Source: Ophelia neglecta (Eukaryota). From it: a stretch of DNA of 64,000 nucleotides. Position numbers and translations under genes: made by a program. The notes under the pieces are model-generated. The model did no database searches. It was given only the letters and a program-made list of their open reading frames with translations, and was not told where the DNA came from. Below are positions 7,428 to 59,400 of this stretch, piece after piece (position 1 is the first letter of the stretch; each line of letters opens with the position of its first letter). The DNA is taken from assembly GCA_965285935.1 (NCBI GenBank), contig OZ260665.1, forward strand, positions 20,088,001 through 20,152,000, in the 5' to 3' direction.

Positions 7428-8968
7428 GTATGCGGCTCGGTAGTCCAAGCTTAGACAAGGTTGTCAATAGAGAGGCTGACATGTTATATTATGTAGCAAA
7501 GGCTAGCTAGGGGCACGGATTGAAATCGTCATGAACAAAGCATTGCACGTAAACCACCGGTTTGGTTTAGAAAAAAATGTAACTTACACCTTTATGTAAA
7601 TGATGCAAAGTGATCAGGGGTGTTCGATGGGAGGGGGAGGGGAGGGTACCACATTTCCCTACAGGACTCTGGAACTGACCCCAAAAGCAGGCACGATTAC
7701 GACCATGCTAATAATCCACCTTGTGTAGTAAAAGACTCCCTCGAGCACGGACCGAAATCCTACTATAAAAGGGACAAACCATGTACATAGGCGACAAATC
7801 AGGTTCAGAGAGAAAAATGGAAATTATTTTGTTACTTCTAAATGATAAACAAAACTGTATGACGAGGGGGGGGGGGGGGGGGGTCCGTGCTTTTGGCTGA
7901 GGGATTCTTAAACATATTCCTGACTTTTTACCATATTAGTACCCATATGTTTAGATTGACATCAGAAGGCCACCACAGGAGATTTGCTACATAGTTGCTG
8001 TGAATTGCTCACGTTTGGACACACAGAACATTCTAGAGAACGCAATAAAACTGGTTTGTTACGGCCTAACCAGACACCAGAGAAGGATAAATCTTCAGTT
8101 TTTTGTGCTTGGTAATCACAGCATAATAAATCATAGTAGTATATAGTATTATTATACTACTATTAGGAGATGACCAGAAGTAGACAAAAGACGATATCGA
8201 AACAGGAGATACAAACTAAAATCGACAATCATATTCCGATTGAATACAATAGAAAATCGTAAAAAATCTCCTGTTTCTCAGCTGAATATGATATCATTAT
8301 AAAAATTGAATGAGGGTGATAGATGAAATCACACACCACTTGCAATGAATGAGCAACTTTCAAAAATTGTCTAATGTTTGCGTCAGATCATTCAACAAGC
8401 GAGTCAGTCGTCTAAGGGAATATGTTAGAACCAAGTATTGGGGAAGTCTGGGATAAACATAGCCTTTTTTAAATACCGCGAGAATAGAAAGTGTCTCCCT
8501 CTACAGTACACTAATGGAATGTGTACGATATCTTGGAATATCATATTTTCTTCGCTCGTTGATTAAACTGGTGTTCTAATAAACAAAAAAATGATGAACA
8601 CGAGGATACAAATGATGAAACTACAAATAGATGACACAATTTATTGACTGGTCTTCAGATTAAACATACATGGTTCCCTGCCAGTAATGGCCTTGTATCC
8701 GCCTCAGGAAGCTATAGGCAGTGTAGGCAATCATTAGGCAGCAGCTGAACATCTCAAAACAGGGTTATTCGAAGTTTATAACTGCACAATAACACACAAA
8801 AAACGTATTATATATATATAGTCACTTGTGCATTAACAGTCTTATTATAGACTTCATAACACAAAGCAAAATGGACAATAATGTTGGTTTTACGGCAGAG
8901 TCGATCAACTCAGTTTCCAAAGAACACTACTATTATGTTGAATGGTGTTTGCTCATTCTAAACGTGGG

Positions 8969-10038
8969 TGTTGTGTTTAAATTTGCCATGTACAGCGCTG
9001 TCGTGGTAACTGCTTACTGCTCAGGCTATTTTTACCTTCACTGACTAAGGGCAGTAGCCTCTTGGACTCAAGCATGGACGCAACAAATTTCTCGGACAGT
9101 TTGTAATCCTTGAACATCTCCATTTTATGTTGAACTCCCATGCTCCGCAGCGTAGTAAGTAATTAGACCAATGTTTTTACGTTTGTTAGTGGCTTTCTTT
9201 TGTGTTTTATTGCTTAGATGACATTAATGTTGTACTCAGATATTGAGTTATATTTGGCTCCTACTTGGGTGGCACGTAAACACATGTCAACTTAAGTATA
9301 TTTATATTCCTGTATCAATTCCTTCACTATTTCCTAGCCAACTTATACAAATCCATATCTTCAACCACAACTTATGTGTTTTATGTAAAATAAGTAATTA
9401 TTCAGGGTTTCTCTTGATTGTGCCTTATTTGTCTACTTAATAATATTCTCCATTTGGTTAACCCAATATGAGTGTCCACTGCATTGGTTATACTGTATAT
9501 CGCTTATCTGACTTGTGAGCGCTGACTCACTGCAGTGTCTGGCGGCCAGCTTTGTGGAGGCTCACAGTGTTAATGAGTACAAGTTTGGCTAATGTAAATT
9601 CTTGTTGAAATAAATGTGCAGTAACATGTGCATGTTATTCCCAACCTAGGTTAACTCAACTATTTGCAATGATTACAATATGCGTGTATATCTGTATGTA
9701 TTATTATGTATACTTGCCTATGCACTTATAGTGTTATGCAAATTATCAATGTCGTATATTTAGTGGTTGTAAGCAGGCTTCTCTAGTTCTATTAACTGTA
9801 AACAATTTTATGCTGTAGCTCTCTCAGTAGATATATCCTATGTGTATGTCACTTAAATGGTAAAATATTGCAGATTCTTTCTCATAGTTTATATAATACG
9901 GGTTTAATTAAGTTGTTTAGTTTACTATTGTTTTTGTTACTTTTCAGTTTAAACCGTCACCTTCAAACAATAAACAGACAAGCAAATCAACGACGCGTTT
10001 TGAATATTCTGGATAAAACATTAATGTAGTTCACTATA
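8969..10038 (+). repeat. 5' LTR (1070 bp), termini TGTTGTG...CACTATA
   Basis: Same length as 16086-17155 with no difference found by eye. The same 65-aa spurious ORF is called in both copies (9243, 16360). AATAAA at 9969-9974. Confidence 0.96.
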
Positions 10039-10104
10039 TTAAGTTTAAATACGGAGCTGTCAACAGAGAAGATCAACGTCAAGATTCAACATTCCAAATT
10101 ACCA

Positions 10105-13100
10105 ATGGCTACCAGTAAAGAGCGAGGCGTGGCAAAGGGCGCTGTCACGAGGATTGCGACAAATATAGATGCCCTAATGCTCGATACCACCCAGCCTGAA
10201 GAAGTCAAGAAGCATTACGAAAGCTTTCACGACAAACTAGCTGAGTTCCTCAAAGTGCATGAAGCTTATACCAACACTTTGGATGATGATAGTGCCAAAG
10301 CAGACTCGGCAAAGTACCTCGTGGCAACCATGAAAGATTTTAATGTATTCAAAGAGAGGGTTGACCTGTGGTTGGCTCAGATAGATGAAGCCCAGTCAGA
10401 ATATGCTAACCCAATGGGCGGGGAAAAGGATAGCGAAGATGACTCCACAGAGGAGGACGAGCTTGGCAAAGAAGACCAGGAGATTGAAAGGTGTCTTCAG
10501 GAGGCGGAAGAGAAATTACGACGCCTGGAGCACCGAGAGTCCCTGCGTCAAAGGCAATTTGAACTTGACAAACATATACGACAACGTCAGTTGGAGGCTA
10601 AGCACGCAGAAGAGGAGCGAAAAGATATACTGAGGCGTATGGATGAAGAGCTGAACTGTCAAAAGGACGATGGCCTTGACATGGTGGGGCCCACCTACTC
10701 AACCCCCAAAACCGCGGGACCCACCAGTCGGACCACAACAGTAGAACTACCATCTGGCATACCAGCCTGGCAGTCACCCAGCTCTAGTGCACCATCCGCA
10801 ACTGAAGCGTCGACATTAGCGCAGGTACTTCGTGAATTCTTAAATGAAACCAGGTCAAGCCAACAGTCTATGGTAGACACTCTACAGCTGCCAAACCTTC
10901 AGCTGATACCCTTCAATGGAGACCCGCTCAAATATTGGTCCTTCATTCGCTCGTTTAGAAATGCCGTTGATAACAAGGCTACTGACCAGGGAACAAAGCT
11001 CTCGTGTCTGGTCCAATATTGTACCGGCAAAGCCCGCAATCTGATCGAGTGCTGCTTGGTAAAGGACCCGGCTGAAGGGTACGAGCTTGCACTTCGCCTC
11101 CTGGAAGAACGCTTTGGCAACAACTACGACATAGCTCAAGAATGGGTTAACAAGATCATTCGAAGGAATCCTGTCAAGGCAGATCTTAGAGAGTTTGCCG
11201 ATGAGCTGAGGTGTTGCCAGGAAAATATTCGAGCTACAGGACACTCAACGTTGTTGGACAATAGCCAGAGTATGCGAGCGATAGTTGAGAAGCTACCCAG
11301 CTACCTGCATACTCGTTGGTTAAGTCAAAACCACAAAATAAAATCTACTAAGTGTAGAATTGCACAATTTGACGATCTGGTGAAATTTGTTAACCAAGCG
11401 GCAGAGGAGGTGTCAGACCCAATCTACGGGAACCTCATTGACAAAAAGAACAAGCAACAACCCGGGGACAAACAGAAGGGCAAGCAAGACAGAAGAGCTA
11501 GGGGCTTTGCCACTCAGGCAGCATTTGGTAGTGGGTCACACAGCAAATCACCTGGAGGACAAACCAAACCTAATCCAAAGGCACTACAAGTACCCAACCC
11601 TGTGAGTGGAGCGAACAAAGATCCATGCTTCCTTTGTGGCGGAAGACATGTCATTGTCTATTGTGACTCCTTCCTGAAAATGAGCCCCCAGGAACGAGTG
11701 GCATTTGTTCAAGGGAAAGGGAGATGTGTAAACTGTTACGCCGAGGGTCATAGCAGCAAAACCTGCTCACGCTCGTCCTTCTGTAAACTGCCAGGATGTG
11801 AAAAGAAACATAGCACATTCTTGCACCTACCTTTGTCGAACACAGCAGTAGATGCGCCAGCTGCTGCCCCTATACCTGAGGCAGCTCTGGATGCAGCTAC
11901 AACAAGTCATAGGACAAACCCTACAGGCACCGCAACGACAGTGAATTGCAGTGTTAGCTGCTACAACCCCGTCAAGGTAGCTCTGCCAATTGTACCTGTT
12001 CGTGTACGCAGTGACACCTCCAAAAATTACGTGGACACGTATGCATTGCTTGATACAGGAGCTGACCAATGCTTCTGCACGAAAGAATTGGCTGAGTGCC
12101 TGGGCGCTCATGGCACAACAACAAAAATAGAGCTGTCGACACTCGACGCTACAGCAACCACTGAAACCAACATGGTCAAGCTGCAAATATCAGACATTCG
12201 CGACCAAGAATGTCATGACATATTAGCTTTCACGAGGCCAAATCTGGCAGTACAGCTGTCTAGTAGGATTACAGAGGAAGACCTACAGAAGTGGCCTCAC
12301 TTACATGGAATAGATATTCCGAATATAGACAAAAACGAAGTCCAGCTCGTCCTTGGGGCTAGCCATCCGGAGGCCTTTACACCGACAGGACCTCCTCGAA
12401 TCGGCAATAGGGGAGAGCCCTACGCCACACCAACTATATTTGGATGGGCTGTAAATGGGCCTGTCGGTGCTGGCCAGCAGCATAGAGTGACGTCATGCTT
12501 TGCCAGGACGAAGTTGGATTTGCAGGCCCAGGTAGAACGATTCTGGGAAATAGAGGATATTGGTGCGAAGCAGCAGCCGACCCCAATGTCCATAAGTGAC
12601 CGTAAGGTCCTGGACAATTGGGATCGGTCTGCACAGCTCACGGGCGGACATTATACAATGGGGATACCCTTTAAAGTGCGCCCACATCATTTTCCTGATA
12701 ATCGATCTGCAGTTCTTCATAGATTGAAGCTTACTGGGAAACGTCTGAAAAGGGACCCAGATATGTTGGAAATGTACACAGCCACCATGCGTGATCTGAT
12801 TGCTAAAGGGTTTGCGGAAAGGGTACCTGAGGAGGACGTGGACAAACATGATGGCATGTCAAACTATATACCACATCATTCAGTGAGACACCCGAGGAAA
12901 CCAGACAAACTGCGTGTTGTCTGGGACTGTGCCGCTAAGTTCCAGGGACTTTCTCTCAATGACCGAGTACACCAGGGTCCTGATTTAGCAAACAAGCTTG
13001 TCGGAGTTCTAATGCGCTTCCGTCAAGAACCCGTGGCCTTCATGGCAGATATCGAAGCCATGTTCAGCCAGGTATATGTCAGCCATGGAGATCGGGATGC

Positions 13101-15846
13101 GTTGAGGTATCTCTGGTGGGAAGACAACGATATTTCCAAAGAACCGGTTGACTACAGGTTGACCACTCATTTGTTCGGCGGCGTGTGGTCGCCAAGTGCA
13201 GCCAATTATGCGCTAAGACGGTGTGCTATCGACAATGAGGCCGACTATGATACACTGACATTTGACACCGTCCAGAGTAATTTCTACGTGGACGATTGTC
13301 TCAAATCCGTGAGTGAAACATCTACTGCTATCCACCTGGCCAGCCAGTTAACCGGAATGCTGGCCAAAGGTGGATTCCGCCTGACAAAATGGATCAGCAA
13401 TGATAAGGGGTTGTTGCAGACAATTCCAAGTGAAGAGCATGCGAAGGGTTTGGCCTCTATCAACTTTGACCTTGACCAGTTGCCTACTGAGCATGCTCTT
13501 GGAGTTCTCTGGCATGTGGAAAATGATTCCTTTGGCTTTGAGATACATCTCCCCGAGAAACCCAAAACTCGTCGAGGAGTGCTAAGTTCTATGAGCTCAG
13601 TTTACGACCCTCTGGGTTTTGTCAGTCCATACATTCTCCGAGCTAAGTTGATCTTCCAATCCCTATGTCGTCGCAACTTGGGATGGGATGAGAGGATTCC
13701 AGATGACCTGCAACAACAATGGGATGATTGGCTACATGATTTGCCACAGCTGAAGCGACTGGACATCCCTCGCTGCATCAGGCCGTGTAACTTTGTGTTA
13801 GCCTCAGCTGCATTACATCATTTTGCTGATGCTTCGCAGGTTGGGTATGGGGCAGTTTCATATCTTCGGCTGCAGGACACTACAGGAATCCTCTCCTGCT
13901 CACTAATAATGTCGAAGTCAAAACTAGCACCAATCAAAGGATCCACAATTCCACGTTTGGAGCTGACAGCTGCTGTGGAGGCAGTCAAACTGGACAGGCT
14001 GATTCGGCAAGAGTTGGAGTTACCACTTCAGAAGTCAACCTTCTGGACAGACTCAATGATCGTTCTATGGTACATTTGCCAGGATGATAAACGTTTTCAG
14101 ACTTTTGTTGCCAATCGAGTGGCATATATCCGTGAATACACTGCGCCAAGTCAATGGCGACATGTGTCAACAAAGGACAACCCGGCAGATGACACGTCCA
14201 GGGGGATGTCAGCAATTGAAGTATCCACATCCACTCGGTGGTTGCAGGGCCCCGCCTTCCTAAGGGAGTCTGAAGTAGCCTGGCCACCCAAACCTGTCTT
14301 GGGACAAACTCAACCTGATGAAGCTGAGGTAAAGAGAGAACTCCAGGCCCATTCTATTGCGGTCAATCATGATGATGGACCCGTTAGCAAATTACTGCTT
14401 CAGTACTCATCTTGGTACAGGCTGCAGAAGGCAGTAGCCTGGTTCCTTCGCCTGAAGAAAAAGCTATTAAAACGTGACAAGCAACCCGCGGGTTCTCTCC
14501 GGGTGATAGAGCTCCACGAAGCTAGGGTCGCCATCGTTCAGTATGTCCAACGGAAGGAGTTTGGCCTCAACTTGGCAGAGTTTATTGAATCTGGCAAGTT
14601 ATGTAAACTAGTGCCATTTCTGTCACTGCAAGGGCTCTTGTGTGTAGGCGGCAGACTGAAACATTCAAATTTGCTTCAAGACGCAAAACATCCTTGGATT
14701 CTTCCAAACAGTCACCATATTACACAACTCATAGTGGAGCACTTCCATGCAGCGTCTGGCCATTCAGGACCCGAGCGAGTCCTGGCTGAAATAAGACAAA
14801 CGTATTGGCCGGTCAAAGGACGTTCAATAGTGAAGTCAGTCCTGAGGAAATGCATCCCCTGCAAAAGGGCAAAAGCTGTAACAATGGGTCAGATCATGGC
14901 GGATCTTCCACCGGATCGTGTTACTCCCGGTGATCCTCCGTTCACTTGGGTTGGTGTGGATTATTTTGGCCCACTCATGGTCAAACGGGGACGCTCCGAG
15001 TTGAAGAGGTATGGATGCCTTTTTACCTGTTTGACAACAAGAGCGGTGCATATTGAAATGTCTGAATCCCTGGAGACAGACAGTTTCATAAATGCTCTAG
15101 AAACTTTCTGCGAACTTCGAGGCCGACCAAGACGTATTCGCTCTGACAACGGCACCAACTTTGTAGGCGCAAAAGCAGAACTATCGAAAGCCTTGGCCTC
15201 CCTAGATCAAAAGGCTATTCACAGCTATCTACGTAAGAGGGAGATAGAATGGGTTTTTAATCCTCCTGCGGCTAGTCATATGGGCGGCATTTGGGAAAGA
15301 CAAATTCGAACAGTGCGATCTATCTTGCTACACTTGTGTCGACACCAGCTTCTGAATGACGAATGTCTTCGGACTTATCTGTACAAAGCAATGGGCATCA
15401 TTAACAGCAGACCGATAACAAAGCTGTCAGATGACCCAAGTGACATAGAACCGCTTACTCCAAATCATCTTCTCCTTCTACGTCCGTCGGGGAACCTAGC
15501 TTTTGGAACGTTTGTCAAAGAAGACCTGTACAGGCGCAGGTGGCGCCAGGTACAATATATGACTGATCAATTTTGGACTTGATGGGTCCGAGAGTATCTG
15601 CCTTCCCTCCAGGAACGACAACGTTGGACCAGACCGAGCAAAAATCTTGAAGTTGGATGCTTGGTTTTGGTTCAGCATGAAAAAACTCCTCGAGGTGAGT
15701 GGCCACTCGGACTAATCACCGAGGTCTACCCAGGAAAAGATGGTAAGGTCAGATCAGCTCAGATACGTTTCCGTGGCGGTCTGTATCACCGGCCAGTTCA
15801 CAAGCTTTGCCTACTGGAGGGGAGCAACTCAATAGACTCTCAGTAG
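10105..15846 (+). CDS. BEL/Pao Gag-Pol polyprotein: 1825-aa ORF to 15582, with the same frame continuing past one in-frame TGA to the TAG at 15844-15846
   Basis: Gag zinc knuckles CFLCGGRHVIVYC, CVNCYAEGHSSKTC and CKLPGCEKKHSTFLH. Protease LLDTGA; RT YVDD; RNase H FADAS, TIPRLEL, FWTDS and NPAD. Integrase H-x4-H...CIPC with catalytic GVDYFGP, SDNGTNF and WERQI. After the stop the frame reads WVREYLPSLQERQRW...WPLGLITEVYPGKDGKVR...RPVHKLCLL, the usual BEL integrase C-terminal region. Confidence 0.95.
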
Positions 15847-15993
15847 CAGGTTGCTTTATCTCCACCGAACAGATCAAATGTTGACGACATTGTTATAATG
15901 GACCAAGGACTGCGACTCGGCTAAATGTTACTGTTGATCATTGTTATAGTAAATATATATGGCTTGCCTTGCTAGCTTGTCAACTTTCTGCAA

Positions 15994-16035
<42 letters not shown>

Positions 16036-16074
16036 CATTGGTTATCGTAATGCTGTGTCTGTCACACTGGCATT

Positions 16075-16085
16075 GGCGGCCGGGA
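16075..16085 (+). other. Polypurine-tract-like plus-strand primer site
   Basis: GGCGGCCGGGA lies immediately 5' of the TG that starts the 3' LTR. Confidence 0.65.
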
Positions 16086-17155
16086 TGTTGTGTTTAAATT
16101 TGCCATGTACAGCGCTGTCGTGGTAACTGCTTACTGCTCAGGCTATTTTTACCTTCACTGACTAAGGGCAGTAGCCTCTTGGACTCAAGCATGGACGCAA
16201 CAAATTTCTCGGACAGTTTGTAATCCTTGAACATCTCCATTTTATGTTGAACTCCCATGCTCCGCAGCGTAGTAAGTAATTAGACCAATGTTTTTACGTT
16301 TGTTAGTGGCTTTCTTTTGTGTTTTATTGCTTAGATGACATTAATGTTGTACTCAGATATTGAGTTATATTTGGCTCCTACTTGGGTGGCACGTAAACAC
16401 ATGTCAACTTAAGTATATTTATATTCCTGTATCAATTCCTTCACTATTTCCTAGCCAACTTATACAAATCCATATCTTCAACCACAACTTATGTGTTTTA
16501 TGTAAAATAAGTAATTATTCAGGGTTTCTCTTGATTGTGCCTTATTTGTCTACTTAATAATATTCTCCATTTGGTTAACCCAATATGAGTGTCCACTGCA
16601 TTGGTTATACTGTATATCGCTTATCTGACTTGTGAGCGCTGACTCACTGCAGTGTCTGGCGGCCAGCTTTGTGGAGGCTCACAGTGTTAATGAGTACAAG
16701 TTTGGCTAATGTAAATTCTTGTTGAAATAAATGTGCAGTAACATGTGCATGTTATTCCCAACCTAGGTTAACTCAACTATTTGCAATGATTACAATATGC
16801 GTGTATATCTGTATGTATTATTATGTATACTTGCCTATGCACTTATAGTGTTATGCAAATTATCAATGTCGTATATTTAGTGGTTGTAAGCAGGCTTCTC
16901 TAGTTCTATTAACTGTAAACAATTTTATGCTGTAGCTCTCTCAGTAGATATATCCTATGTGTATGTCACTTAAATGGTAAAATATTGCAGATTCTTTCTC
17001 ATAGTTTATATAATACGGGTTTAATTAAGTTGTTTAGTTTACTATTGTTTTTGTTACTTTTCAGTTTAAACCGTCACCTTCAAACAATAAACAGACAAGC
17101 AAATCAACGACGCGTTTTGAATATTCTGGATAAAACATTAATGTAGTTCACTATA
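16086..17155 (+). repeat. 3' LTR (1070 bp)
   Basis: Direct repeat of the 5' LTR. Preceded by the purine-rich GGCGGCCGGGA and followed by the TSD GTGGG. Confidence 0.96.
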
Positions 17156-18211
17156 GTGGGCGATATGCAATCAATATAAACTACCCGAGAAGTGGAGCAG
17201 GTATTAACAGTCTACTTACTGTTAATGAATCACCTCTATTAAATAGGCCCGCAATCATTAGAAACCCCCAGCTACACAGCCACAAACACCTATCCCCAGT
17301 TCCCCATCACCAACAAGCTCGTTATAATACCATTAATAGTAAATCAAAGTGGATATCAATTGGAATGAGAAGCAGATAACAGTTGTCCTTGATGCAAGTC
17401 AGAGCGTCGACAAACAAACTAGTCAGCGCACATGTTCAACGAAAGACAGGGATTATATAAGCAATTCTACAAAATGATTGGAAACGAACGGCTATAAAAA
17501 TTAACTCTATACATTCTGTACAAGACTGTGCTCATGAATGGACCATTGTTAAACCCTCATTTTAGCTCAACACTGAGATTTAAATACATAAATTGCAAAA
17601 TAAGGTCTTTGGCTGAATCGCTACCCATTATGAATACCTTCTGGTATGTAGTTAAGTCCCAGGATTAAACACAATGCAGGCTATTCTTGGCGGTCACAGC
17701 CCATTTTCGTAGAGCCAGTGTCCATGAATTCTAGCCAGAAATGTTTCCATTGAGAGCAAGGTATATGAATATCTTACAATGATTGCTAGAATGAAATCTG
17801 ACTAGCATTCAAGCCTACGTTCCAAATATACAGCAGAAAAATACTGCAGCTATGGATCATACCTTATTCAGATTACCAATATTGAATATTAAACAAGTGG
17901 CCTGTCATATTGGGGGCATTTCCAGCGTGTTACAAACACGGTAGAAAATAAGCCATCTAGAAACCGGATCCTTTCTGTCATCACGTGTTATGCTAGTAGC
18001 TGCTAGTCGACAACTCGATTCCGGCTGCTTCCACCACGGAAATTAACGAGGTACACGTTGGATTCGATTGCCAGAATATCTACATACATCATGAACTGAT
18101 TGTTCTTAACATCAGCCAATAGATCAGAGAAATATGGATATTATGGGAAAACAGGAGTAGACAACCGACACACAAAGCAATATCGTGAAACATGATAGTC
18201 TTTTAAATCGA

Positions 18212-22214: not shown

Positions 22215-22602
22215 AGAATGAACATTGTCCTTTCTTAAGGAACATGTCATCCTGTCTATTGAACATTGTCTTGTCTAATGAACACTGTATTGTCTTAATT
22301 AGCATTGTCTTGTCTCGAGCATCGTCTTTTCTAAATTAAAGCATTGTTAAACGCCTAGTATGAACGATGTATTGTCTAATGAACATTTTCTTGTCTAAAT
22401 TCAATACTTGTTAGCGCCTAGTATGAATACTGTCCTGTCTTATGGACATAGTCCTGTCTAATGAACATTGTCTTGTCTAATTAACAATGTGTTGTCTTAT
22501 TAGCACTGTGTTGTTTTATGAACACTATGGTGTCTTATGAACATTGTCTTGTCTAAATTCAAGCCTTGTCTTGTCTAATGAACAGCGTCTTGTCTAATGA
22601 AT
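22215..22602. repeat. Degenerate ~19-bp minisatellite (AACATTGTCTTGTCTAATG)n
   Basis: The unit recurs in tandem with variants. Confidence 0.85.
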
Positions 22603-22928
22603 GAAAACATGTGGCTAAAAAGGCTAAATGCAATTGAAAAAGATAAAAATAATAAGAGTACTAGCATTTAAAATCTCAATTTTATGCAAAAGGAGGGAAA
22701 ACTTAATCAAGACCATGTGTGTAATGTCAATGCTTTGACAATGGTATACTATTCGCTATCATTTGAGTTTTCAAGATGTCCTGAGATGGATTTGTCAACA
22801 TTTCTCTGCTTATCCATCTTGTCAGGAAATTAACCTGAATGGGGCTCGAGCCAAGAACCTTTCGACTTGTAGTTGGCACCTGTAGTTCATAAAAGGCGGA
22901 CACGCTCCCCGTCAGCCGCGGAAACAAC

Positions 22929-33570: not shown

Positions 33571-33954
33571 TTAAACCAACCATGTTAACATGATCATTCT
33601 ATCAGCCCATCGTGTAAAGTGGTTCCACTGGATCGGTCGATATTTTATCCACCAGTACTTGGTGCTATCTTGGGTTTCTGGCCTAAAATTCAATGTAACT
33701 ATATATTTCAGATCAACTATATATATCATTCACTATATAATTTATGTAAGCTAAATGGCTTCTAGATGTGTCATATTTTAAGTCAGACACTACTACAATG
33801 TATACAAAGGATAATACTTTCATTCAATAGTTTTTTAATTCAAAATAAAGTCTTGGTAATGAACGCTCATGTAATCTATAATAAGGATTTAGCTTACCGG
33901 ATTTTTTGAGAAAGAGTCTTGACCATTTTTTTTAGTTATTGTGTACAGCTTGTC

Positions 33955-34390
33955 AGTGACGTTGACTGTAGATTATTGAGTCCTAGCCAGTAATATTGAC
34001 TGTAGATTATTGGGTACAAGCCAGTTATATTGACTGTAGATTATTGGGTACTAGCAAGTTATAGTGACTGTATATTATTGGGTACTAGTAAGTGATATTG
34101 ACTGTAGATTATTGGGTACAAGCAAGTTATAGTGACTGTAGATTATTGGGTACTAGCAAGTTATAGTGACTGTAGATTATTGGGTACAAGCAAGTTATAG
34201 TGACTGTAGATTATTGGGTACTAGCAAGTTATAGTGACTGTAGATTATTGGGTACTAGCAAGTTATAGTGACTGTAGATTATTGGGTACTAGTAAGTGAT
34301 ATTGACTGTAGATTAGTGGGTACTAGCTAGCTATTTTGACTGTAGATTATTGGGTACTAGCCAGTGACATTAACTGTAGATTATTGACTT
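33955..34390. repeat. 34-bp minisatellite, ~13 copies (GACTGTAGATTATTGGGTACTAGCAAGTTATAGT)
   Basis: Period 34, e.g. 34201 to 34235. Confidence 0.95.
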
Positions 34391-34837
34391 GTTCCATTTT
34401 TTCGTTTTAATACAGCTATTTAACACAATGAACACACACACAGTATAGTGTGGGAGCGTAAAATATACGGGCGATAACGAAACGTTATAACGTGAACGGG
34501 TAATTGTCAGTCACGTGACTGGGTAATTGGTCAACTTGCATTTTGTCTTATTTTACGTATTGCTCTGTACGCCACTGTATACCCGCGTTAATGTGATACT
34601 TTACCAGTACAACGAATCTTGTGAACTCAGACCATCCTAAGGACTGGGAAATACGGGTCTAATTATGAAGATGATCTGTTTCCCTCAGAGCCCCTAAATA
34701 TGATAAAGCGCCATTTTCATTATGCGACTACCAAGACATAATTATGATCGCACAATTCGATAGTTTTCAGGCTTCCAGTAACAATGTCATCTTTCCTTTT
34801 TGGTTTCTACTCCGGAGACATGTCTAAGGTATTCGTA

Positions 34838-35488
34838 ATACGTGTGTCCTTGAAGTCTGATTGGAGTAGGTCCATATACTGGTACGTGTCTCTTTGAAGT
34901 CTGATTGGAGTAGGCCCGTATACTGGTACGTGTCTCCTTGCAGTCTGATTGGAGTAGGCCCGTATACTGGTACGTGTCTCTTTGAAGTCTGATTGGAGTA
35001 GGCCCATATACTGGTACGTGTCTAATTGGCGTAGGCCCGTATACTGGTACGTGTCTCCTTGAAGTCTAATTGGCGTAGGCCCGTATACTGGTACGTGTCT
35101 CCTTGCAGTCTGATTGGAGTAGGCCCATATACTGGTACGTGTCTCCTTGAAGTCTGATTGGAGTAGGCCCGTATACTGGTAAGTGTCTCCTTGAAGTCTG
35201 ATTGGAGTAGGCCCGTATACTGGTACGTGTCTCCTTAAAGTCTGATTGGAGTAGGCCCGTATACTGGTAAGTGTCTTCTTGAAGTCTGATTGGAGTAGGC
35301 CCGTATACTGGTAAGTGTCTTCTTGAAGTCTGATTGGAGTAGGCCCGTATACTGGTACGTGTCTCCTTGAAGTCTGATTGGAGTAGGCCCGTATACTGGT
35401 ACGTGTCTCCTTAAAGTCTGATTGGAGTAGGCCCGTATACTGGTACGTGTCTCCTTGAAGTCTTATTGGAGTAGGCCCGCACATTGGT
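34838..35488. repeat. 44-bp minisatellite, ~15 copies (TACTGGTACGTGTCTCCTTGAAGTCTGATTGGAGTAGGCCCGTA)
   Basis: Period 44 (34921 to 34965), with one shortened unit near 35020. Confidence 0.95.
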
Positions 35489-38400
35489 GTGCATACCTAC
35501 GAATCTGGAGTATGTGTGTGTGGTATATAACTGGTAGTAATATACGGCTGGATTGTCCGACATTAAACGTGCCGCCCGCTTAACAGCTATAACATCGAAA
35601 AAGTCGGCACATTATCAAAGACAGCTTATTTATCTAGGAAAAAATCCCGAAAAGTTACTTAATGGGGGAGTGGAATGATTAAGGATGGCATCCACCCCAG
35701 TTATACCAGCTAGGAACCCTAATGGTCAGATTCAGCCTGCATGCAATTTATCCGATGCAAATTATGCTTTTTAGAGGCAATTTTACCGTAATTGTTCATA
35801 AAGTTTTTCTCATTGTACGTTTTTAAAACCTTTGGACCTTCACCTTATTGTCTTTGACACCTCTGGTCGTAACCAAAAGTTTGGCACCCCAGCAAACTCT
35901 TGATAAGCAAAGTAAGAACCGCTTTTTTAACGTAATCGCATTTGAATTGGATTATTTTCAAAAATACTTTCATTTTAATTCATTAATACAGAGGCAAAGT
36001 TGCACCTAAGTGCTTATTTCAACATCTTAATTTCACAGTTCAACATCTGAACATCACATTTGCTCCCGTATCACAAAGACTAGATGGGTATAGATTTGAT
36101 TTTTTTGTATGCAAATAAGCGCCATTTATGAGCCGTTGTACTGGATACACCGTTATTCTACATTTCATAATATAGCCCTTAAATGCATATGTATTTTATT
36201 AATAGGACTGTTCTTTCATTAGAATGGCCCATGAAAATAACCCTATAAGAGCAGAAAATTCCTTCGAGCCAAATATTTAAATTAGGGAGCAAAATTGCAG
36301 ACAATATATAATCTATAGCTCATTCTATGCTCATTTTACCTGGACTGCATTTGGTAGGCTGACCGTTGCTGCAAATTAGATTTCCATTTACCGTAAGTGT
36401 ATGTTTGGCGGCATTGCCAGTTGACACAGTTAAGTGCCTTTCAAACTGTGTAGGCCTATACTATTTTCAAAGACCAATTTGCCAATTGTAGGTTTTGCTG
36501 ATGCTAGTTCTGGCTGTTTCTATTGAAAACTGAAAGATTTTTTAATAAATACTCAGTGGTATATAACACAAATTTATAATAGCTAGCTGGTCCCGATCTA
36601 TAGTCACACATGCATCTAAAAGTCAGCATTCCATCCATTCTATAGCCTATCTGCCTGCGTATCTCATATACTTGTATTAAAAGTCAGGCTACAATTGTTT
36701 ATATCGTATCAGAAATGATCAGATCATGTTATATAAGTGTTACTAGTTAACTAGTCTTTTCACTTTTCTGTGGGCTTCTGTAGGTTGTAGTGACCTATAA
36801 AGGAGTTTCCCCATGCAGTGGCACCCCCTGTTGGGCTGTTTTAGAGCTTTGAGGACCTATAAAAATATCTGGCCATCTGGTCTGTGATTGGCCAAAAAAG
36901 CTAGCCTAGCTGTATAGCATGCTGGAATATGTGTTATTCATAAGATAGACATAAGGTCTTATCAATAAGGAATAATTCATAGACGCATACTGGTATTCTT
37001 GCCGCAATGGTGGCCATGGAAAAGACATGTCACACATTTTGCGTGAGCCATTTTAGGAGGCCGGCACCTATATGGACATAAAGAGGGAAAAAATGATCAT
37101 TTCTCCAAGCTCACAAAGAAAAAAAATTGCCAACTAAGCTATGCTCATTTTTTTTGTGTTGTTGCCTTAACTAGTGTCTTTCAGTGAAACACAGCAGCTA
37201 AGCCCGAGCAATATCGTGAATAACCAGCTAAGCATAAAACAAATTCAGTGGTTAATATAATGACTGTGGAAATTTATATGCAAAACTGGAGCCAAACGAT
37301 GAAAAACATACCCCATTACACAACCATCACCTTCCACGAGAATCTAATAATAAAAAATATGCCCATGACAGTGATCACATGGGGCGGCAGGAGTTTCCCT
37401 AGTACGTACGTCATTGACATTATTGGGCCATAAAAACCGCGGACAATCTCGGTTAGGTATTCATTAATTTGATCAATCATTCATATAATGCGTATTTGCA
37501 ACATTTCAGGAGAGAAAAACTGAAAATAATGGCACATGTTCCAAAGAAAAATACCTGTAGGACTGACCAGACTATGTATATCTAGATCATTCTGATTAGG
37601 AGTCGAGAAAAAAGAAGCTGAGTGACGCACATTTACGTCCAGTGCCGTCCTTGAGTGTTTGTTTATTGATTCTCGAGTTTGGAGTCAGTAATTTCAAGTA
37701 TCGAGTATGAAATCCCGTGTGTCGAGTATGAATATCGAATCTCCCTATCTTCAATATTCTCTTGAGATTCTGATATCGCGCCCGGCCAACGGTCTAAAAA
37801 ATGTAATGTGACTTTAACTCTTTTGTATTTGTCAGGATAGCATTAATAAAGTGCCAGTCTATTATTTGTATTGGCGTTTTAATCATTGCGGATATATCAC
37901 AAATCACGGTTTGATGCTGTGTATACAGTCTACAGTGTATTATAAACATGATATATACACTTGAGGTGGCCAGCTTCTGTCCCGTGATCAGGGGTTGGGG
38001 AGGGGGGGGGCACTAGCGTATGAAATTGGTGCGGAAGTTGCGAGATGCCTCCAGTGGTTGTCAAGGGAGCTGATTTTTGTGTGAACCAACGATAATCAAT
38101 GTAGGCCCTGCCGATATTTATCAAGAAACCAACGCACTACGTAACTGATATTTTCTTTCATAAATTCTTTAGGCACCTCAAAGGTCATATTATTATTCCG
38201 TTAACAGGGAGCGAGTTGGCCTAAAACAAATCTCCGATAAGAGCGAGTTTGACCAGAGAAATGACCATATCGAGCGGGTTTCATCCCAGGCTTCTATACA
38301 GAGCCGGTCCATGCTGAAAGTATAATAAAACGTAGTGGATATTTACTTTGAATAAAGTGCTGGGGGAGGGGGGTGGGGGTGGGGAGGGGCTTCCATGGTG

Positions 38401-46059: not shown

Positions 46060-47367
46060 TCGAAATAAATCGCGGTGTGAGTTGTCATTTTTAATTTCAG
46101 TCGGGTTTGATGGTTTTATATTAGTACCATGGCTTTCGGTTATTCGAAAGCTTACGTTGTTATTGACGGGATGTCGGAGGTAAGTGGTTTTTTATGCGGT
46201 TATTATCGGACGGTTATTTCAGGCGCCAGGTTTGCGTTGTGTACCTTCGCTCGCTTATTGGTAGTACACAGGGGCCGTACCAGATAACGACAGCCTATGG
46301 CATAATGTGGGCATTTTATACCAGTCCTTTGACTGACCTTAATAGACAGGTTACACTGTTTACTCTCGAAATATGTAGGCGTCTTAGAAGAAGCAGTCTC
46401 ACTGACTCAAATCAGCACTTTAAATAAATCAGGTATTTTCACGGAAAATTGCCAACATTTCCCGATTGCGATAACCGAATGTATTGCAACGCCTTGAGTA
46501 GTAAATCACCCTTTTCCTGGCTCAATGACAGCATTTCCTGTCGAAAATATATAGGGTAAAAAAGAATTGCGAAATGTCCAACTCCTGTCGAAAATATAGG
46601 GTAAAATAACGTTTGCGAAATGTTCTTGGTGCCGAGATATGTTGGGTATAAACTAGGCTGTTAATTCACTTTGCTGTAAGACCAAACATGACGTCTTTCT
46701 CAACAGCACAATCACACAATGGCAGGCTTGACTTCGGAGAATGGGCCATTTTAGCAGATCGGGGGTTAAATATGTACTACACCATGTATGAAAGAATTGT
46801 GATTCAATGGTTGTCGGGTATATCAAGGCCATCAGAGTGAGATCCGGCCTCTCTGAGTAGCCGAAGTTTGTGATTGAGTGTCGAGGCAATATTTGTATTT
46901 CTATTTTTTTTTAAGTAATCTATGTTTTCTTCAGTTGTTGTCAGTCGCCCCGTGTAACGAACATATTACTATACTCCCATTTTTAAATAAAATCTAATCT
47001 TATCTTTGACAAGCGGCAAACCAGATGTAGGCAATTTCTTCATTTAAAGTGGGAGCGCAAGAGACACGTGTCCAGGTTTTATAAATGTGTATTCAAATAT
47101 GAACGGGGTAAACAAACACGTGCTTATGTCACTAAAGCAAGGAGAGCGACCCCACAGCTTCGCAGGCAAAAGGTCTATTGGCCTAATGGCTCTTCTTTTG
47201 TTGGTTAATTTGGGGAGATCAAGTTGTTTCTTCTTTAAACTTCCAACTTTTCCTATATACACACAAGGTTCAAAACCAAACATTCATGGTACCATTCGGC
47301 AGAAAATTATCGGTGCTTCAAATGCACGTTTACCTGTTGCATTTCAAGTAAATACAAGTAACATATA

Positions 47368-47545
47368 CAGTGAAACCTGCCTTAAAGACCACCTCTATAA
47401 TCAGACCACCAGTCAACTCAGACCACTAATGTGAGGATCATTTTGTATACTTTCAATGTTAAATAACCTGTATAATCAGACCACCCTAGAAATCAGACCT
47501 GCACTTTCCAGTCCCTTAGCTGGTCTTTATTCACAGGTTACACTG
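47368..47545 (-). mobile_element. Tc1/mariner-like MITE (178 bp), TA TSD
   Basis: TA|CAGTGAAACCTG...CAGGTTACACTG|TA. Reverse complement of the copies at 48318 and 58927. Confidence 0.85.
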
Positions 47546-48317: not shown

Positions 48318-48488
48318 ACCTGTGAATTAAGAACACCCAAGGGACTGGAAAATGCTGGTCTGATTTTGGAGGTGGTCTATTTAGACAGGTTATTTGACCT
48401 TGAATGTTTACAGCATGGTCCTCATATTAGTGGTCTGAATTGCCAGGTGGTCTTATTATAGAGGTGGTCTTTAAGGCAGGTTTCACTG
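48318..48488 (+). mobile_element. Tc1/mariner-like MITE, left TIR truncated
   Basis: Closely similar to 58927-59104. Ends CAGGTTTCACTG|TA. Confidence 0.82.
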
Positions 48489-51400
48489 TATATATATTCT
48501 ATTAACCAAGTCGCCAGCCCGTTTCGCCGGCCCTTAGGTTTATGAACAACTGATGTTTCCTCTACATATCACATAATTCTTGTTTTGAATACTTATTTTT
48601 TATTATTGGGAAAAAACCAGATTGTGTGCATGGCGTGTCCTTACGACGATTCAGCCTGTTCCACGAAAAAAACCCAGAAGCTGCTGTTTTTGACAAGGAG
48701 TTGCCGGCTATGTATACTGCTTCAGGGACTGTTGAAATGGATTCTTTCCGGTTGTTGACTTACAAACAGAAATTTATTTGTGATATTGTGAATACCATAC
48801 AAGTAACATGTTAATATCAGCTTCAGAGAACTCGAAATATGCCGCCCAGGCTTAGTATACGGTATACAAACATTAAAAAAATCGAACGCAACTTAAAGCT
48901 TACTTGGACGGCAGTGCTTCCCCTTCTTCATATGTCGAATTTTGCGCTCCTCGATAACTAATTATAATTATATTTGACCATATATTTTGACGTCCAGTGT
49001 TGTCTTCATTTTCACAATACTTTGTTTCTGCTGATCCATTTATGATATAGCTTTTTTACTGTAACTCTTTTCAAAACAATATCAATCATTTTGGATGTCA
49101 TGTCCATTTCTCCCCTGTATATATGTATAAATGTCATAGGGTGTCCAGTCCTCACGGCCTCGGCTATTACTGGCGTCCTGGTTTTACTTTGTTTCGTCAT
49201 CAATGCCTTGCTCGTTTGTACATGTTGATGTGTTGTCTAAGTAGCACCAAATAAACTCAATTCAATCAATGATGCCGGAGACAAGTAGGTGTATATAAAA
49301 ACAAGTCGAAAACGGTACAATTGACACACGTTGTCCCACTAAGGCCGCCATTTTTATTGTAAGGTTTATGAAAGTTTTTCCACAAATGTTAGACAAAAAA
49401 GGAGGATCGAAGATAAAAATTAATGTCTTATTTGTGCTTTTATTAAATGTAAAAAAAAGCAAGAAAACAGTTTGGTCTATAGGGGAAAATGATCCGATAC
49501 ATGGCTATTGAGCATATTTAATTTTAAATTACAAACATGGTGCACTGTTAACTAACGTTGAGGCGGCTTAGAGCCAGCAAACGTCTTCTGGACAAGACAA
49601 TATCTTTCACCTTTTCCAACAGATGGGAATAAAATCAATCACTTTTCGTTTAGATCTTACTCCGTTTTGGCCAGAGCGGTTTTCTAAACCAACATATCAA
49701 AAGAAGATGGCTTATTCTAAACGCCATTTATACAAGATATATTGACTACAGGTGTAAGGGTGCTGATAGGATTGTTTCAGACTTGCCTATAGGACTATAG
49801 AAACTAATTTTTAAAAAATTGATATAGTCGTTTTCACCCGTTTTTTATTTTCACACTTTCTGACATAACCGTCTTCATTCCACGGGTCCATTTTAGTTTG
49901 AGTTTTTGTTTCTTTAAATTTCATGGGTTAATTTTATTGTTTTAATGTAACAAATAGTTCGTCAATAGCCTTAGGCTTATGTCTATTTGTTTTAATGTAA
50001 CTAACAGATTTTAAATAAAACTTGTCTGGTCCTAATCTTCAAGTTAGATATCGTTTCCACTATTACTATACTCAATGTGGATGTTTTCAAGTCGTTTTTA
50101 TCTGTCGGATTATGATTACAGTATTGATATTCTCCTGCCCGAGCCGAAGTCTTGATTTACGCTATTCAGGGGTAGACGTAGGTTATTAGAAAAGATGGGG
50201 TACGGAATGGGTGACCTACTGGAGAGAGGGTCTGGAGACACCCCCCCACCCCACCCCACCCCTTTCCGCTCTCCTCTCCTGCCCCACATTCCAAACCCCA
50301 AAACGTTCTCTGATGGAACTTTAAGACGGTGAAGCGGGATTCCGTGGCGGCGTCCTGCCAACCCCCCCCCCCTCCGCCCCCGCCACCCCACCACCACCCC
50401 GCCTGAATCCGTCAACGTGATGTCATAATGAAAACCGTCTGCACGGGACGGGAACTTGATACTTCACTTCAGTTGACAGATAACAATTTCTCAGAGGTTT
50501 TGTCGAAGCAGTAACTTCACGCGGAGACACCCGTGGAAAAAAAACCCTGCAAACCTCGTCCGCTCATCCTGAAGTTTTCTTATACAATGAATTGGACTAA
50601 GTTCAAAATGTTTCAATGCTGAAACCACGGCTTCAAGCCAGCTAAGAGTTTTAGATTCTCTAACACCCCTGGTATATACCGAAATGGGAAGCCCTTAACT
50701 ATTATAATAATTTTATAATAATACACTATTATATAGGGAGAGAGAGCGGGCATACCACACATTAAGCAAAAATTTAGCCCAATCGCTGTAATTTAGAACC
50801 CAGACATATGATAGAAAGACTGCTGCCTGCTACTGAAGATTGTCTGTACACGCAACAAAGTAATAATTACGGAACTTGTTCATGAATACAGGTATAAGTT
50901 TGCTAATATTCCGTTTACGTCCAGCTGATATAAGGAAGGCTAACTAGCCAGTGCCGAGTTAATTAGCGCCGAATGGGCCAGGATTTATCTCATCATACAA
51001 AACGTTCGAGTTAAGCTCATCCCACGGGGTCATTTCAGGCTTCATTTAATGAGCATCATAGCAGCCTTTCCTGGACTAAACCGACTTTTATTTATATGTT
51101 AAGGTGTCATTGTCATGTTACCCAGGGTCAGTCGTTGAGCAGGGTATTCATGACACCCCGTAGGCCATCCTTGCTCCGAAATATACTCTCTATAGGCCTA
51201 CCAAACAATTAAAACTGTCGAGGCCATTGGTGCTCGAGGGTTCGGTATTATCGCCATAGCAGCCGTATCAATTCTCCCAAGTTTTTTCACACTTTGGAAT
51301 TTCAGTTCGATGTTTTTTTTTGGACACCACTGTAACTGTCGAGCTCGAGGACACCGGTGTAGGAGTGTCCGGTGCTATCGGCAGGTGTATCAATTCTCAC

Positions 51401-56960: not shown

Positions 56961-57668
56961 CCGCAATAAACCTATTTACCATATATATAGGCTTATAGGA
57001 GAAACATTAATTTGTTTTAAGGAAAGCTGAAATTATGTTTGCTGTAAAAAAAATTACGAAAAATTGTATTAACAATGCCGCGGCCATGTGTTGATTTGGG
57101 CTGATCGTGCTCGAGTAATTGGAGCGCTCTCTTTATAGTCATTATACTGTATCGCCATTTCATGGAACCGAAAGAATTAATCATTGTGATCAAGCACATG
57201 CAATTGCAAAACAGCAATGGCTGTTTATTACAAAATATGTGCCAAAGTGGATGGAGTCGTGTTTAATGTTGTTTCCTTAATGTTCACCTTTACTGGAGAC
57301 TGAGTTACATTGCCACCGATATAAAGGTAAAAATGTCATAAATCTTATAGAAATAAGGCATTATGCTTCACCTTCAATTCGAAATATTGCAACTTCCTTC
57401 ACTTCCGACAATATAGCGAAAGTTCAGGATTTTATTTTAAAAGGTCGAGCATTTTACTCTGACATTTGGAAATAGAATCATAAAGCTTTCCTTCTAAGGC
57501 ACGTGACATTTTATTACGTAAATGAATTAAATTAATTGTGTATTAAGCTGCTACCGATGAACTAGCCCGCAATGTAAGGAATGTTAAACCTGACGAAACA
57601 GAAAAAGGGGGGTCGGTTCCCTCCTCCCAGAAACATACTTGGGAATATCACAAATCACGGCACCCACG

Positions 57669-58038
57669 ATATAGGCCTATAGATACTACACCCAGACCTA
57701 TTGTAGGCCTATAAACACTACACCCAGACCGATATTATAGGCCTATAAACACTACACCCAGACCGATATTATAGGCCTATAAACACTACACCCAGACCGA
57801 TATTATAGGCCTATAAACACTACACACAGGCCTATATTATAGGCCTATTAACACTACACCAAGACCTATATTATAGGCCTATAAACACTACACCAAAACC
57901 TATATTATAGGCCTATAAACACTACACACAGGCCTATATTATAGGCCGATACACACTAAACGCAGAACCATATTACAGGCCTATAAACACTACACGAAGG
58001 CCTATATTAGAGGCTATAAACACTACACGAAGGCCTAT
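57669..58038. repeat. 34-bp minisatellite, ~11 copies, each with the palindrome TATAGGCCTATA
   Basis: Period 34 (57721 to 57755). Confidence 0.95.
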
Positions 58039-58926
58039 TTAATCATATGCTCCCAGTCGTTTGGGTGTTTGAAGAGTCTTATACATTGTGGCATCCTACA
58101 CAGCCAAAAATGATGGAATCTCTCAAAACCCTTTCACACCATATTACTCCGTGTGGTCTAAAAAAAATGTACACTTTGAAGAAAACTTCGATGTAACTGC
58201 CGATGAACTTATCATGACTCTATTCAGTTCTGCGAAGAGAATTTTAATTTGGACGATACGGTAGGCATTTTATTCGGGATAACAGTAAGCGAGCTTGCGG
58301 TGATACAGGGTATATCTGCATAATCTATAGACACTGAAGATCTATTCCTGATAACTTTAGGAATGCATAAAGCTTAATCTAAAGTTGCCCAAGACCACTT
58401 ATGATACAAGGTTTCGAATGTTAGGTTTCGTAGGACCCTCTAGGCGTATGACACCGTATGTACTCATAAACTATATCGTTTTTCCTTATGCTAATCTCAA
58501 ATAAATACGTTTTATATTGCGTGGGGAATTACAACTTCGGCTTGAATATCTTGATAGACTATTGATGGTGGAAATACAGACTGTAATGTACAACAGTATA
58601 CGTGTAACCTTGATCGCTGGGAGGGGAAGACAAAGCAGGAATAAAATGTCCTATAAAAACAAAATTCAGCGTCATAATTCGCACATAATCCGCTACATAT
58701 TTTATGGCGCGGAGATAAAAACATGGCTGCGGGTTTTTCCTTTCAATGTCATTTTTTTTCCTGATAAACCAGGACAGACTTGGCAAATGAATGGGGTACT
58801 TAATTGAATATCAAACAGAACCAGGCTGATGACATAGAAACAGATATTTGCTCCTATAAATGTACTAAAACGGGTTGTTTTCTTGCAACCAGGCCAAAAA
58901 TGTTAAAATAATTCATATCTTATTCT

Positions 58927-59104
58927 CAGTGAAACCTGTGAATTAAGACCACCCAAGGGACTGGAAAATGTTAGTCTGATTTTGGAGGTGGTCTGTTCAG
59001 ACAGGTTATTTAACATTGAACATATACATTAAGGGGCTCCTATTCGTGGTCTGAATTGGCAGGTGGTCTGATTATAGAGGTGGTCTTTAAGGCAGGTTTC
59101 CCTG
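58927..59104 (+). mobile_element. Tc1/mariner-like MITE (178 bp)
   Basis: CAGTGAAACCTG...CAGGTTTCCCTG|TA. Confidence 0.85.
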
Positions 59105-59400
59105 TATTTCTTTTACCAATATTTGGTTCCACATTCCCCATAAACATTGTTTTAAGTAATATAAGCTAGGTTATTTTGTCATAGATCTAGATCGAAGATA
59201 ACCAGTGAAGGCCTCGACAATGAACAGCATTCCCCACCCGCCGACAAACCTACCGCGCTGCCGCTCAAACGGAAAACGTGAATATTTATATATGTTTATA
59301 TCCCATAGAAGTGACTAATCGCCTAAAGCCTACAGATCTCGATCTAGCTATAGCCTATGACTAACAAGAAAAAAACCTGATATGGTTAAGAGATACTCAC

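Follow-up and report, generated by a model that had tools for sequence, protein, structure and literature searches.

The post-LTR segment of a BEL/Pao retrotransposon without a tRNA primer-binding site is complementary to a predicted splice junction of its own LTR: a candidate for self-priming

Introduction

How does a recently mobile retrotransposon begin reverse transcription when the sequence that follows its 5' LTR offers no primer-binding site for a tRNA? This question is raised by a BEL/Pao element in a 64,000-nucleotide stretch of DNA from Ophelia neglecta (the window). According to the ICTV profile, BEL/Pao elements replicate by tRNA priming, in a process that is poorly understood (PMC8742986). 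A first-pass annotation of the window had proposed that the element may be primed by its own RNA, or undergo RNA cyclisation, and that the segment after the 5' LTR can pair with nucleotides 3-17 of the LTR. The first part of that proposal, the element's own RNA as primer, is the best reading of the data presented here, but LTR nucleotides 3-17 do not hold as the partner, since this pairing is not conserved among relatives.

Results

The element consists of an internal region between two LTRs of 1070 bp each that have 0 differences between them and TG...TA ends (Table 1). The ORF that begins at 10105 contains PF03564, aspartyl protease, RT, PF05380 and integrase domains, with gag Cys-His motifs at aa 508, 541 and 560 and recognizable RNase H motifs, and an in-frame stop at 15580-15582 removes about 87 codons of the integrase tail. 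Named protein homologues at 48-56% are found in echinoderms, a nemertean, fish and corals. An empty-site allele, in which 8963 is joined to 17156, was present in the contigs of all three runs from one sample. In the contigs of the same number of runs, again from one sample, depth over the element was more than 10x that of the flanks, although depth does not give copy number, and 6-7 letters differed across about 6 kb where the contigs were collapsed. The family is young and the insertion at 8969-17155 is polymorphic.

Table 1. Coordinates of the element and of the features relevant to its priming, as positions in the window
Feature	Position	Strand	Remark
Left target-site duplication	8964..8968	+	5 bp, GTGGG; empty-site allele joins 8963 to 17156
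5' LTR	8969..10038	+	1070 bp, TG...TA
LTR nt 3-17, partner in the first-pass annotation	8971..8985	+	real pairing, but unconserved
End of predicted exon 1	9142..9154	+	the predicted primer begins with the four nt 9151-9154
Predicted GT-AG intron	9155..9947	+	793 nt; putative, from splice signals
First 7 nt of exon 2	9948..9954	+	3' part of the predicted primer; cleavage after 9954 predicted by analogy with Tf1
AATAAA poly(A) signal	9969..9974	+	in exon 2
Segment competing for the junction in cis folding	9992..10012	+	3' of the poly(A) signal
Hairpin spanning the LTR end	10021..10042	+	9 bp, U5-IR-like; adjoins primer site; -5.3 kcal/mol
Spacer from LTR end to primer site	10039..10042	+	4 nt
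Predicted primer-binding site	10043..10053	+	exact 11-nt complement of junction 9151-9154/9948-9954
gag-pol ORF	10105..15582	+	three Cys-His boxes, protease, RT YVDD, RNase H, integrase
Polypurine-tract position	16075..16085	+	G-rich, likewise in relatives
3' LTR	16086..17155	+	same sequence as 5' LTR; intron copy at 16272-17064
Right target-site duplication	17156..17160	+	5 bp

Several other features of the element and its surroundings were recorded. The LTR ends in TA instead of CA (10037-10038 and 17154-17155) although the family is actively inserting; TA is also found in L008/L009, and in the window LTR the U5 hairpin is maintained at this end through a G-U pair. A run of about 40 T lies at approximately 15997-16037 in the 3' untranslated region, ahead of the polypurine tract. 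Elsewhere in the window there are tandem arrays at 33861-35591, 57631-58048 and 22239-22610, with 34-, 44- and 19-bp units, and a dispersed repeat of about 180 bp, probably a MITE family, occurs in both orientations (47360-47545, 48318-48498, 58927-59114 and 2458-2517). ARAGORN found 0 tRNA genes in the 64,000-nt window.

The claim that no tRNA primer-binding site is present was borne out, as TGG is absent after the 5' LTR. The proposed duplex between 10040-10054 and 8971-8985 is likewise exact, with 15 contiguous pairs of which 10 are Watson-Crick and 5 are G-U. A run of this length is unusual: when the LTR was shuffled, at least 15 contiguous pairs anywhere were reached in 2 of 500 sequences with dinucleotide composition kept and in 0 of 150 mononucleotide shuffles. 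The annotation had cautioned that this could be a chance match. The duplex rests on a near-palindromic octamer with identical copies at 8975-8982 and 10043-10050. It is weak (-11.2 to -11.7 kcal/mol, with a longest pure Watson-Crick run of 6) and is predicted with a probability of 0 in the folded leader; according to the folding model, imposing it would cost 17 kcal/mol in the spliced leader and about 8.6 in the unspliced leader.

The LTR-start pairing was also not conserved among relatives. When 14 families with a known LTR start were compared, the mean energy of pairing with a family's own LTR start was -5.9 kcal/mol and that of cross-family pairs was -5.8 kcal/mol (permutation test, p=0.44; p=0.79 when the window was left out). 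An early impression that the pairing is kept in L011 and L038 was ruled out by this cross-family comparison. Additionally, a TATA box was found 88-198 nt inside the LTR in 4 of the 11 LTRs examined, which would place the LTR start outside the 5' end of those transcripts; no TATA match was found in the window LTR.

A different partner emerged from the splice signals of the LTR. With generic scoring, the donor at 9155 ranks first of 86 GT dinucleotides in the LTR and the acceptor ending at 9947 ranks first of 45 AG dinucleotides, and when this top donor and top acceptor are joined the result is an exact 11-nt complement of 10043-10053. This is the only 11-nt junction match among the 1749 GT-AG pairs of the window LTR, and the unspliced LTR gives at most 7 nt. 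Nucleotides 9142-9146 lengthen the junction duplex across a 5-nt bulge, bringing it to -17.2 kcal/mol. The predicted 3' end of the primer at 9954 pairs with 10043, so that the spacer is 4 nt and not the 2 nt proposed earlier. The 9154-9948 joint was not found in the contigs of X1-X3 (one sample), where assembly drops rare variants.

Whether the junction match is peculiar to the window was addressed with relatives from 85 loci carrying BEL/Pao elements (79 from metagenomes and 6 from prokaryote bins); two scans of viral contigs yielded nothing. In 30 of these the LTR end and the following segment were judged to be visible, and the other 55, which are truncated or rearranged, were left out. TGG follows the LTR in 0 of the 30 loci; a TGG in L015 was set aside, as that contig appears to begin beyond the primer site. 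Donor, acceptor and site are all contained in 21 of the 30, and every one of these 21 sites pairs with its own junction, through 11-15 Watson-Crick pairs in 20 loci and through 10 plus 1 G-U in L052. Intron length ranges from 76 to 1022 nt across the loci with a junction match, and the match begins 0-4 nt past the LTR end in 22 of 22 rows of the comparison. It should be noted that 14 of the 21 junction loci came from a threshold scan, whereas L002, L012, L046, L052, L081, L082 and L083 were matched by eye after the site was seen, which is a source of bias. For most loci, moreover, the ACA motif was the sole criterion by which the LTR end was placed. L013, L014 and L019 do not include the needed part of the LTR and fall outside the junction test.

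Grouping into 19 families (the window and 18 others) gave the same picture. The own-junction Watson-Crick run is 11-15 in 18 families, with L052 again at 10 Watson-Crick pairs and 1 G-U, whereas in 320 cross-family pairs between non-kin it never exceeded 8 nt. Duplex energy across the 19 families was -16.0 kcal/mol with the own junction compared to -5.8 kcal/mol for cross-family pairs (p=5e-5). Compensatory double changes were seen at 2 of 11 pairs between the sister families L081 and L082, whose LTR pieces are about 90% alike, at 2 between L002 and L046, at 3 between L022 and L023, and at 3-6 between the window and L012, L017, L008 or L002. RT/RNase H identity among the families is 45-73% (median 51). 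When splice sites were ranked blind in 11 LTRs, with scoring that did not use the exon letters, the donor was ranked top in 9, including one tie, and the acceptor was among the best two in 8; in 10 of the 11 LTRs exactly one GT-AG pair reached 11 nt. Shuffled sites were matched by any GT-AG pair in 0-7 of 100 and by junctions of the three best donors with the three best acceptors in 0 of 100 per LTR. In 14 of 16 rows, exon 2 contains a poly(A) hexamer. Comparison of the sequences therefore identifies the conserved partner as the predicted exon 1/exon 2 junction of an LTR intron, and not the LTR start.

Not all relatives follow this arrangement. Four loci have an intron-free complement: in L016 and L018 a contiguous complement of 11-12 nt without an intron lies about 200 nt from the LTR end, and in L055 and L068 the match is imperfect. 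In a quick, midpoint-rooted tree built without named reference elements, L016 and L018 fall in a clade sister to the junction family L008/L009, a position that hints at intron loss. The distant BEL family represented by L034/L061 lacks a tRNA site, and its 465-nt LTR shows no detectable complement to the post-LTR segment (matches of 6 nt at most). Animal-type BEL/Pao elements L080-L085 are on contigs of GTDB bacterial bins (Rubritalea, Anaerolineae, Bacteroidota and Phycisphaerales), most likely as a result of host contamination. L084 (4150-4720) and L014 have a second GTAAGT donor upstream of the primer-making donor, which possibly reflects alternative LTR splicing.

In the predicted structures of spliced leaders, junction-site pairing has P>=0.85 in 8 of 15 rows, approximately 0.5 in 3 and <=0.21 in 4, the last being the window, L009, L023 and L082, and pairing of unspliced exon 2 with the site is predicted at P<=0.01 in 14 of the 15. 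In the window the junction duplex is predicted at a probability of about 0 in cis and is calculated to be 4-5 kcal/mol costlier than a helix with 9992-10012. On the other hand, in a short spliced RNA ending at 9985-9995 the junction is predicted to be 77-86% unpaired, and delivery in trans would therefore be allowed. For the clade, fold-back in cis appears somewhat the likelier of the two compared to supply in trans by a short spliced LTR RNA; for the window copy, the folding model favours trans delivery or chaperoned refolding.

Other structural features were noted. The primer-site sequence is partly repeated within exon 2/U5 in the window (9992-10012), L011, L038 and L008, where this second copy competes for the junction and possibly forms an RNA switch. 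Most relatives also have predicted stems at the U5 end (variable geometry; no shuffle control). An 8-11-nt Watson-Crick complement to the first 22 nt of the 3' LTR was found shortly before the polypurine tract in 18 of 35 elements (only 5 in the window; no shuffle control). This complement, located 12-110 nt ahead of the 3' LTR in L005, L011, L015, L046, L059 and other elements, possibly forms a hairpin enclosing the polypurine tract.

Discussion

The data presented in this study suggest, with good confidence, that the element is self-primed in a Tf1-like manner by a primer that is built by splicing and acts either in cis or by way of a short spliced RNA made from the LTR. The position of the site, its complementarity to the junction and its covariation with it were observed directly in the sequences, and the model built on them would run as follows. 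Transcription would begin in the first ~185 nt of the LTR, and the splice signals suggest that the host spliceosome would then take out 9155-9947. The new junction, made of 4 nt of exon 1 and 7 nt of exon 2, would pair with 10043-10053 beside the U5 hairpin, with the primer supplied either by fold-back in cis or by a short LTR RNA, spliced and polyadenylated, that acts in trans. By analogy with Tf1, RNase H would cut after nucleotide 7 of exon 2 and free a 3'-OH, and the resulting strong-stop DNA of about 88 nt, a copy of 9955-10042, would jump to the 3' R region. Because this strong-stop DNA would copy only 9955-10042, the intron would have to be re-inherited from an unspliced 3' LTR. This last step counts against the model, since the 3' LTR intron would have to be retained in genomic RNA although it lies ahead of the poly(A) signal, and the model has no mechanism for its escape from splicing.

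Four other explanations were weighed. One is that nt 3-17 of the 3' LTR (16088-16102) pair with the primer site as a family-specific cyclisation element or competitor, which would be compatible with junction priming. The run is unlikely to have arisen by chance, an octamer is common to 8975 and 10043, and 9-pair runs are present in L001 and L038; however, runs of just 4-7 were found in 9 of 11 relatives and there was no energy excess over cross-family pairs, and this explanation is considered unlikely. Marginally less credit is given to a role of the junction pairing outside priming (a splicing guide, poly(A) suppression, packaging or a translation switch), with some other primer in use. The pairing occupies the exact position required of a primer site, starting 0-4 nt past the LTR end, and all 30 loci are devoid of a tRNA site. 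The complement is also kept in intron-free relatives, and its minimum length is 11, as in Tf1. These points outweigh the facts that the data themselves consist of pairing and covariation, that splice sites could be bridged by a segment that complements the ends of both exons, and that competing folds are found in several leaders.

Priming at the site by a cellular RNA, such as a tRNA half, a trailer or an snRNA, is very improbable. It would agree with the ICTV profile, which gives tRNA priming for the family (PMC8742986), but the site varies between families in step with each family's junction, and a fixed host RNA as primer would not allow such change. No TGG follows the LTR, and there was no Rfam match in 8900-10300, though the latter is a weak test. 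The least credible explanation is that LTR nt 3-17 at the transcript 5' end are the primer, as this pairing, for all its improbable length in shuffles, is not conserved, includes five G-U pairs and a calculated 17 kcal/mol penalty, conflicts with the TATA boxes inside other LTRs and would leave a U3 of only ~2 nt.

No report of self-priming or of a splice-junction primer in BEL/Pao elements was found in the literature searched, although subscription papers, Repbase records and supplements, which were outside its scope, may mention atypical BEL primer sites. A term search of the text available for PMC554778, PMC3118150 and PMC6238403 did not return primer-site terms. If the splice-built primer proposed here is correct, self-priming, which has been described for the Tf1/sushi group of gypsy elements, would operate in a second superfamily as well and would span many families at ~50% RT/RH identity. 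The primer would be absent from the DNA until splicing makes it, tying retrotransposon replication to host splicing, and this would account for the failure of PBS finders on such elements. A broader and rather doubtful extension is that tRNA priming was replaced in a large aquatic branch of BEL/Pao, from corals to fish, by a spliceosome-assembled primer that a short LTR RNA, capped, spliced and polyadenylated, would deliver in trans. Were this trans reading true, any LTR, even a solo LTR, would be a primer gene, splicing would gate replication, and the intron-free relatives would be lineages that fixed a spliced LTR.

Among known systems, Ty1 undergoes 5'-3' cyclisation by long-range pairing near its primer site and is still primed by a tRNA. 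Long-range pairing near the primer site is what the first-pass annotation proposed for the window element as well, but Ty1 keeps its tRNA and the LTR-start pairing here is not conserved. LTR elements without a canonical tRNA site include bivalve TRIMs, which lack a PBS, and the fungal GalEa Copia elements, which have a Conserved Hairpin Site (PMC6934838). The window element shares this lack, but the hairpin of those elements is a local one in the internal domain, and an LTR-junction complement is not described for them (PMC6934838).

By its proteins and organization, the element resembles BEL/Pao (Belpaoviridae in the ICTV classification), with 1.07 kb LTRs, a single gag-pol, PR-RT-RH-IN order, PF05380, PF03564 (DUF1759 gag), a 5-bp TSD and three Cys-His boxes in gag, the triple box being given as a BEL/Pao gag feature in PMC554778. 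Its LTRs are within the 0.2-1.2 kb range of BEL/Pao and are flanked by a TSD, though their 3' end is TA and not CA. According to the ICTV profile, Belpaoviridae use tRNA priming from an 18-nt site for tRNA-Arg or tRNA-Gly (PMC8742986); this site is absent from the window element and from the 30 related loci. The element is therefore BEL/Pao by protein ancestry and departs from the stated priming feature of the group.

The closest functional parallel is the Tf1/sushi group of Ty3/gypsy, in which Tf1, Tf2 and Tj1 likewise have no tRNA site and are self-primed (PMC7175516, PMC4600332). The Tf1 primer is 11 nt and is released by RNase H cleavage (PMC7175516). The window element likewise has an 11-nt LTR-derived RNA complementary to a site beside the LTR end, here predicted only after splicing, and an RNase H that, judged from its motifs, would be available for cleavage. 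The 9-bp hairpin predicted next to its primer site may correspond to the U5 stem-loop of Tf1, which is named in the title of a reference. The differences are that the window element has BEL/Pao ancestry (a Pao-type protein) and not that of a Ty3/gypsy chromovirus, and that in Tf1 the first 11 nt of the transcript serve as primer whereas the primer predicted here is an internal exon-exon junction absent from the DNA, so that host splicing would be needed for priming, which could also operate in trans. A junction implies an upstream exon, and the primer is thus probably not the first 11 nt of the transcript; in the window model a capped exon of at least 100 nt would lie ahead of it. By this analogy, the element would work like Tf1 and Tj1 without being a member of their group.
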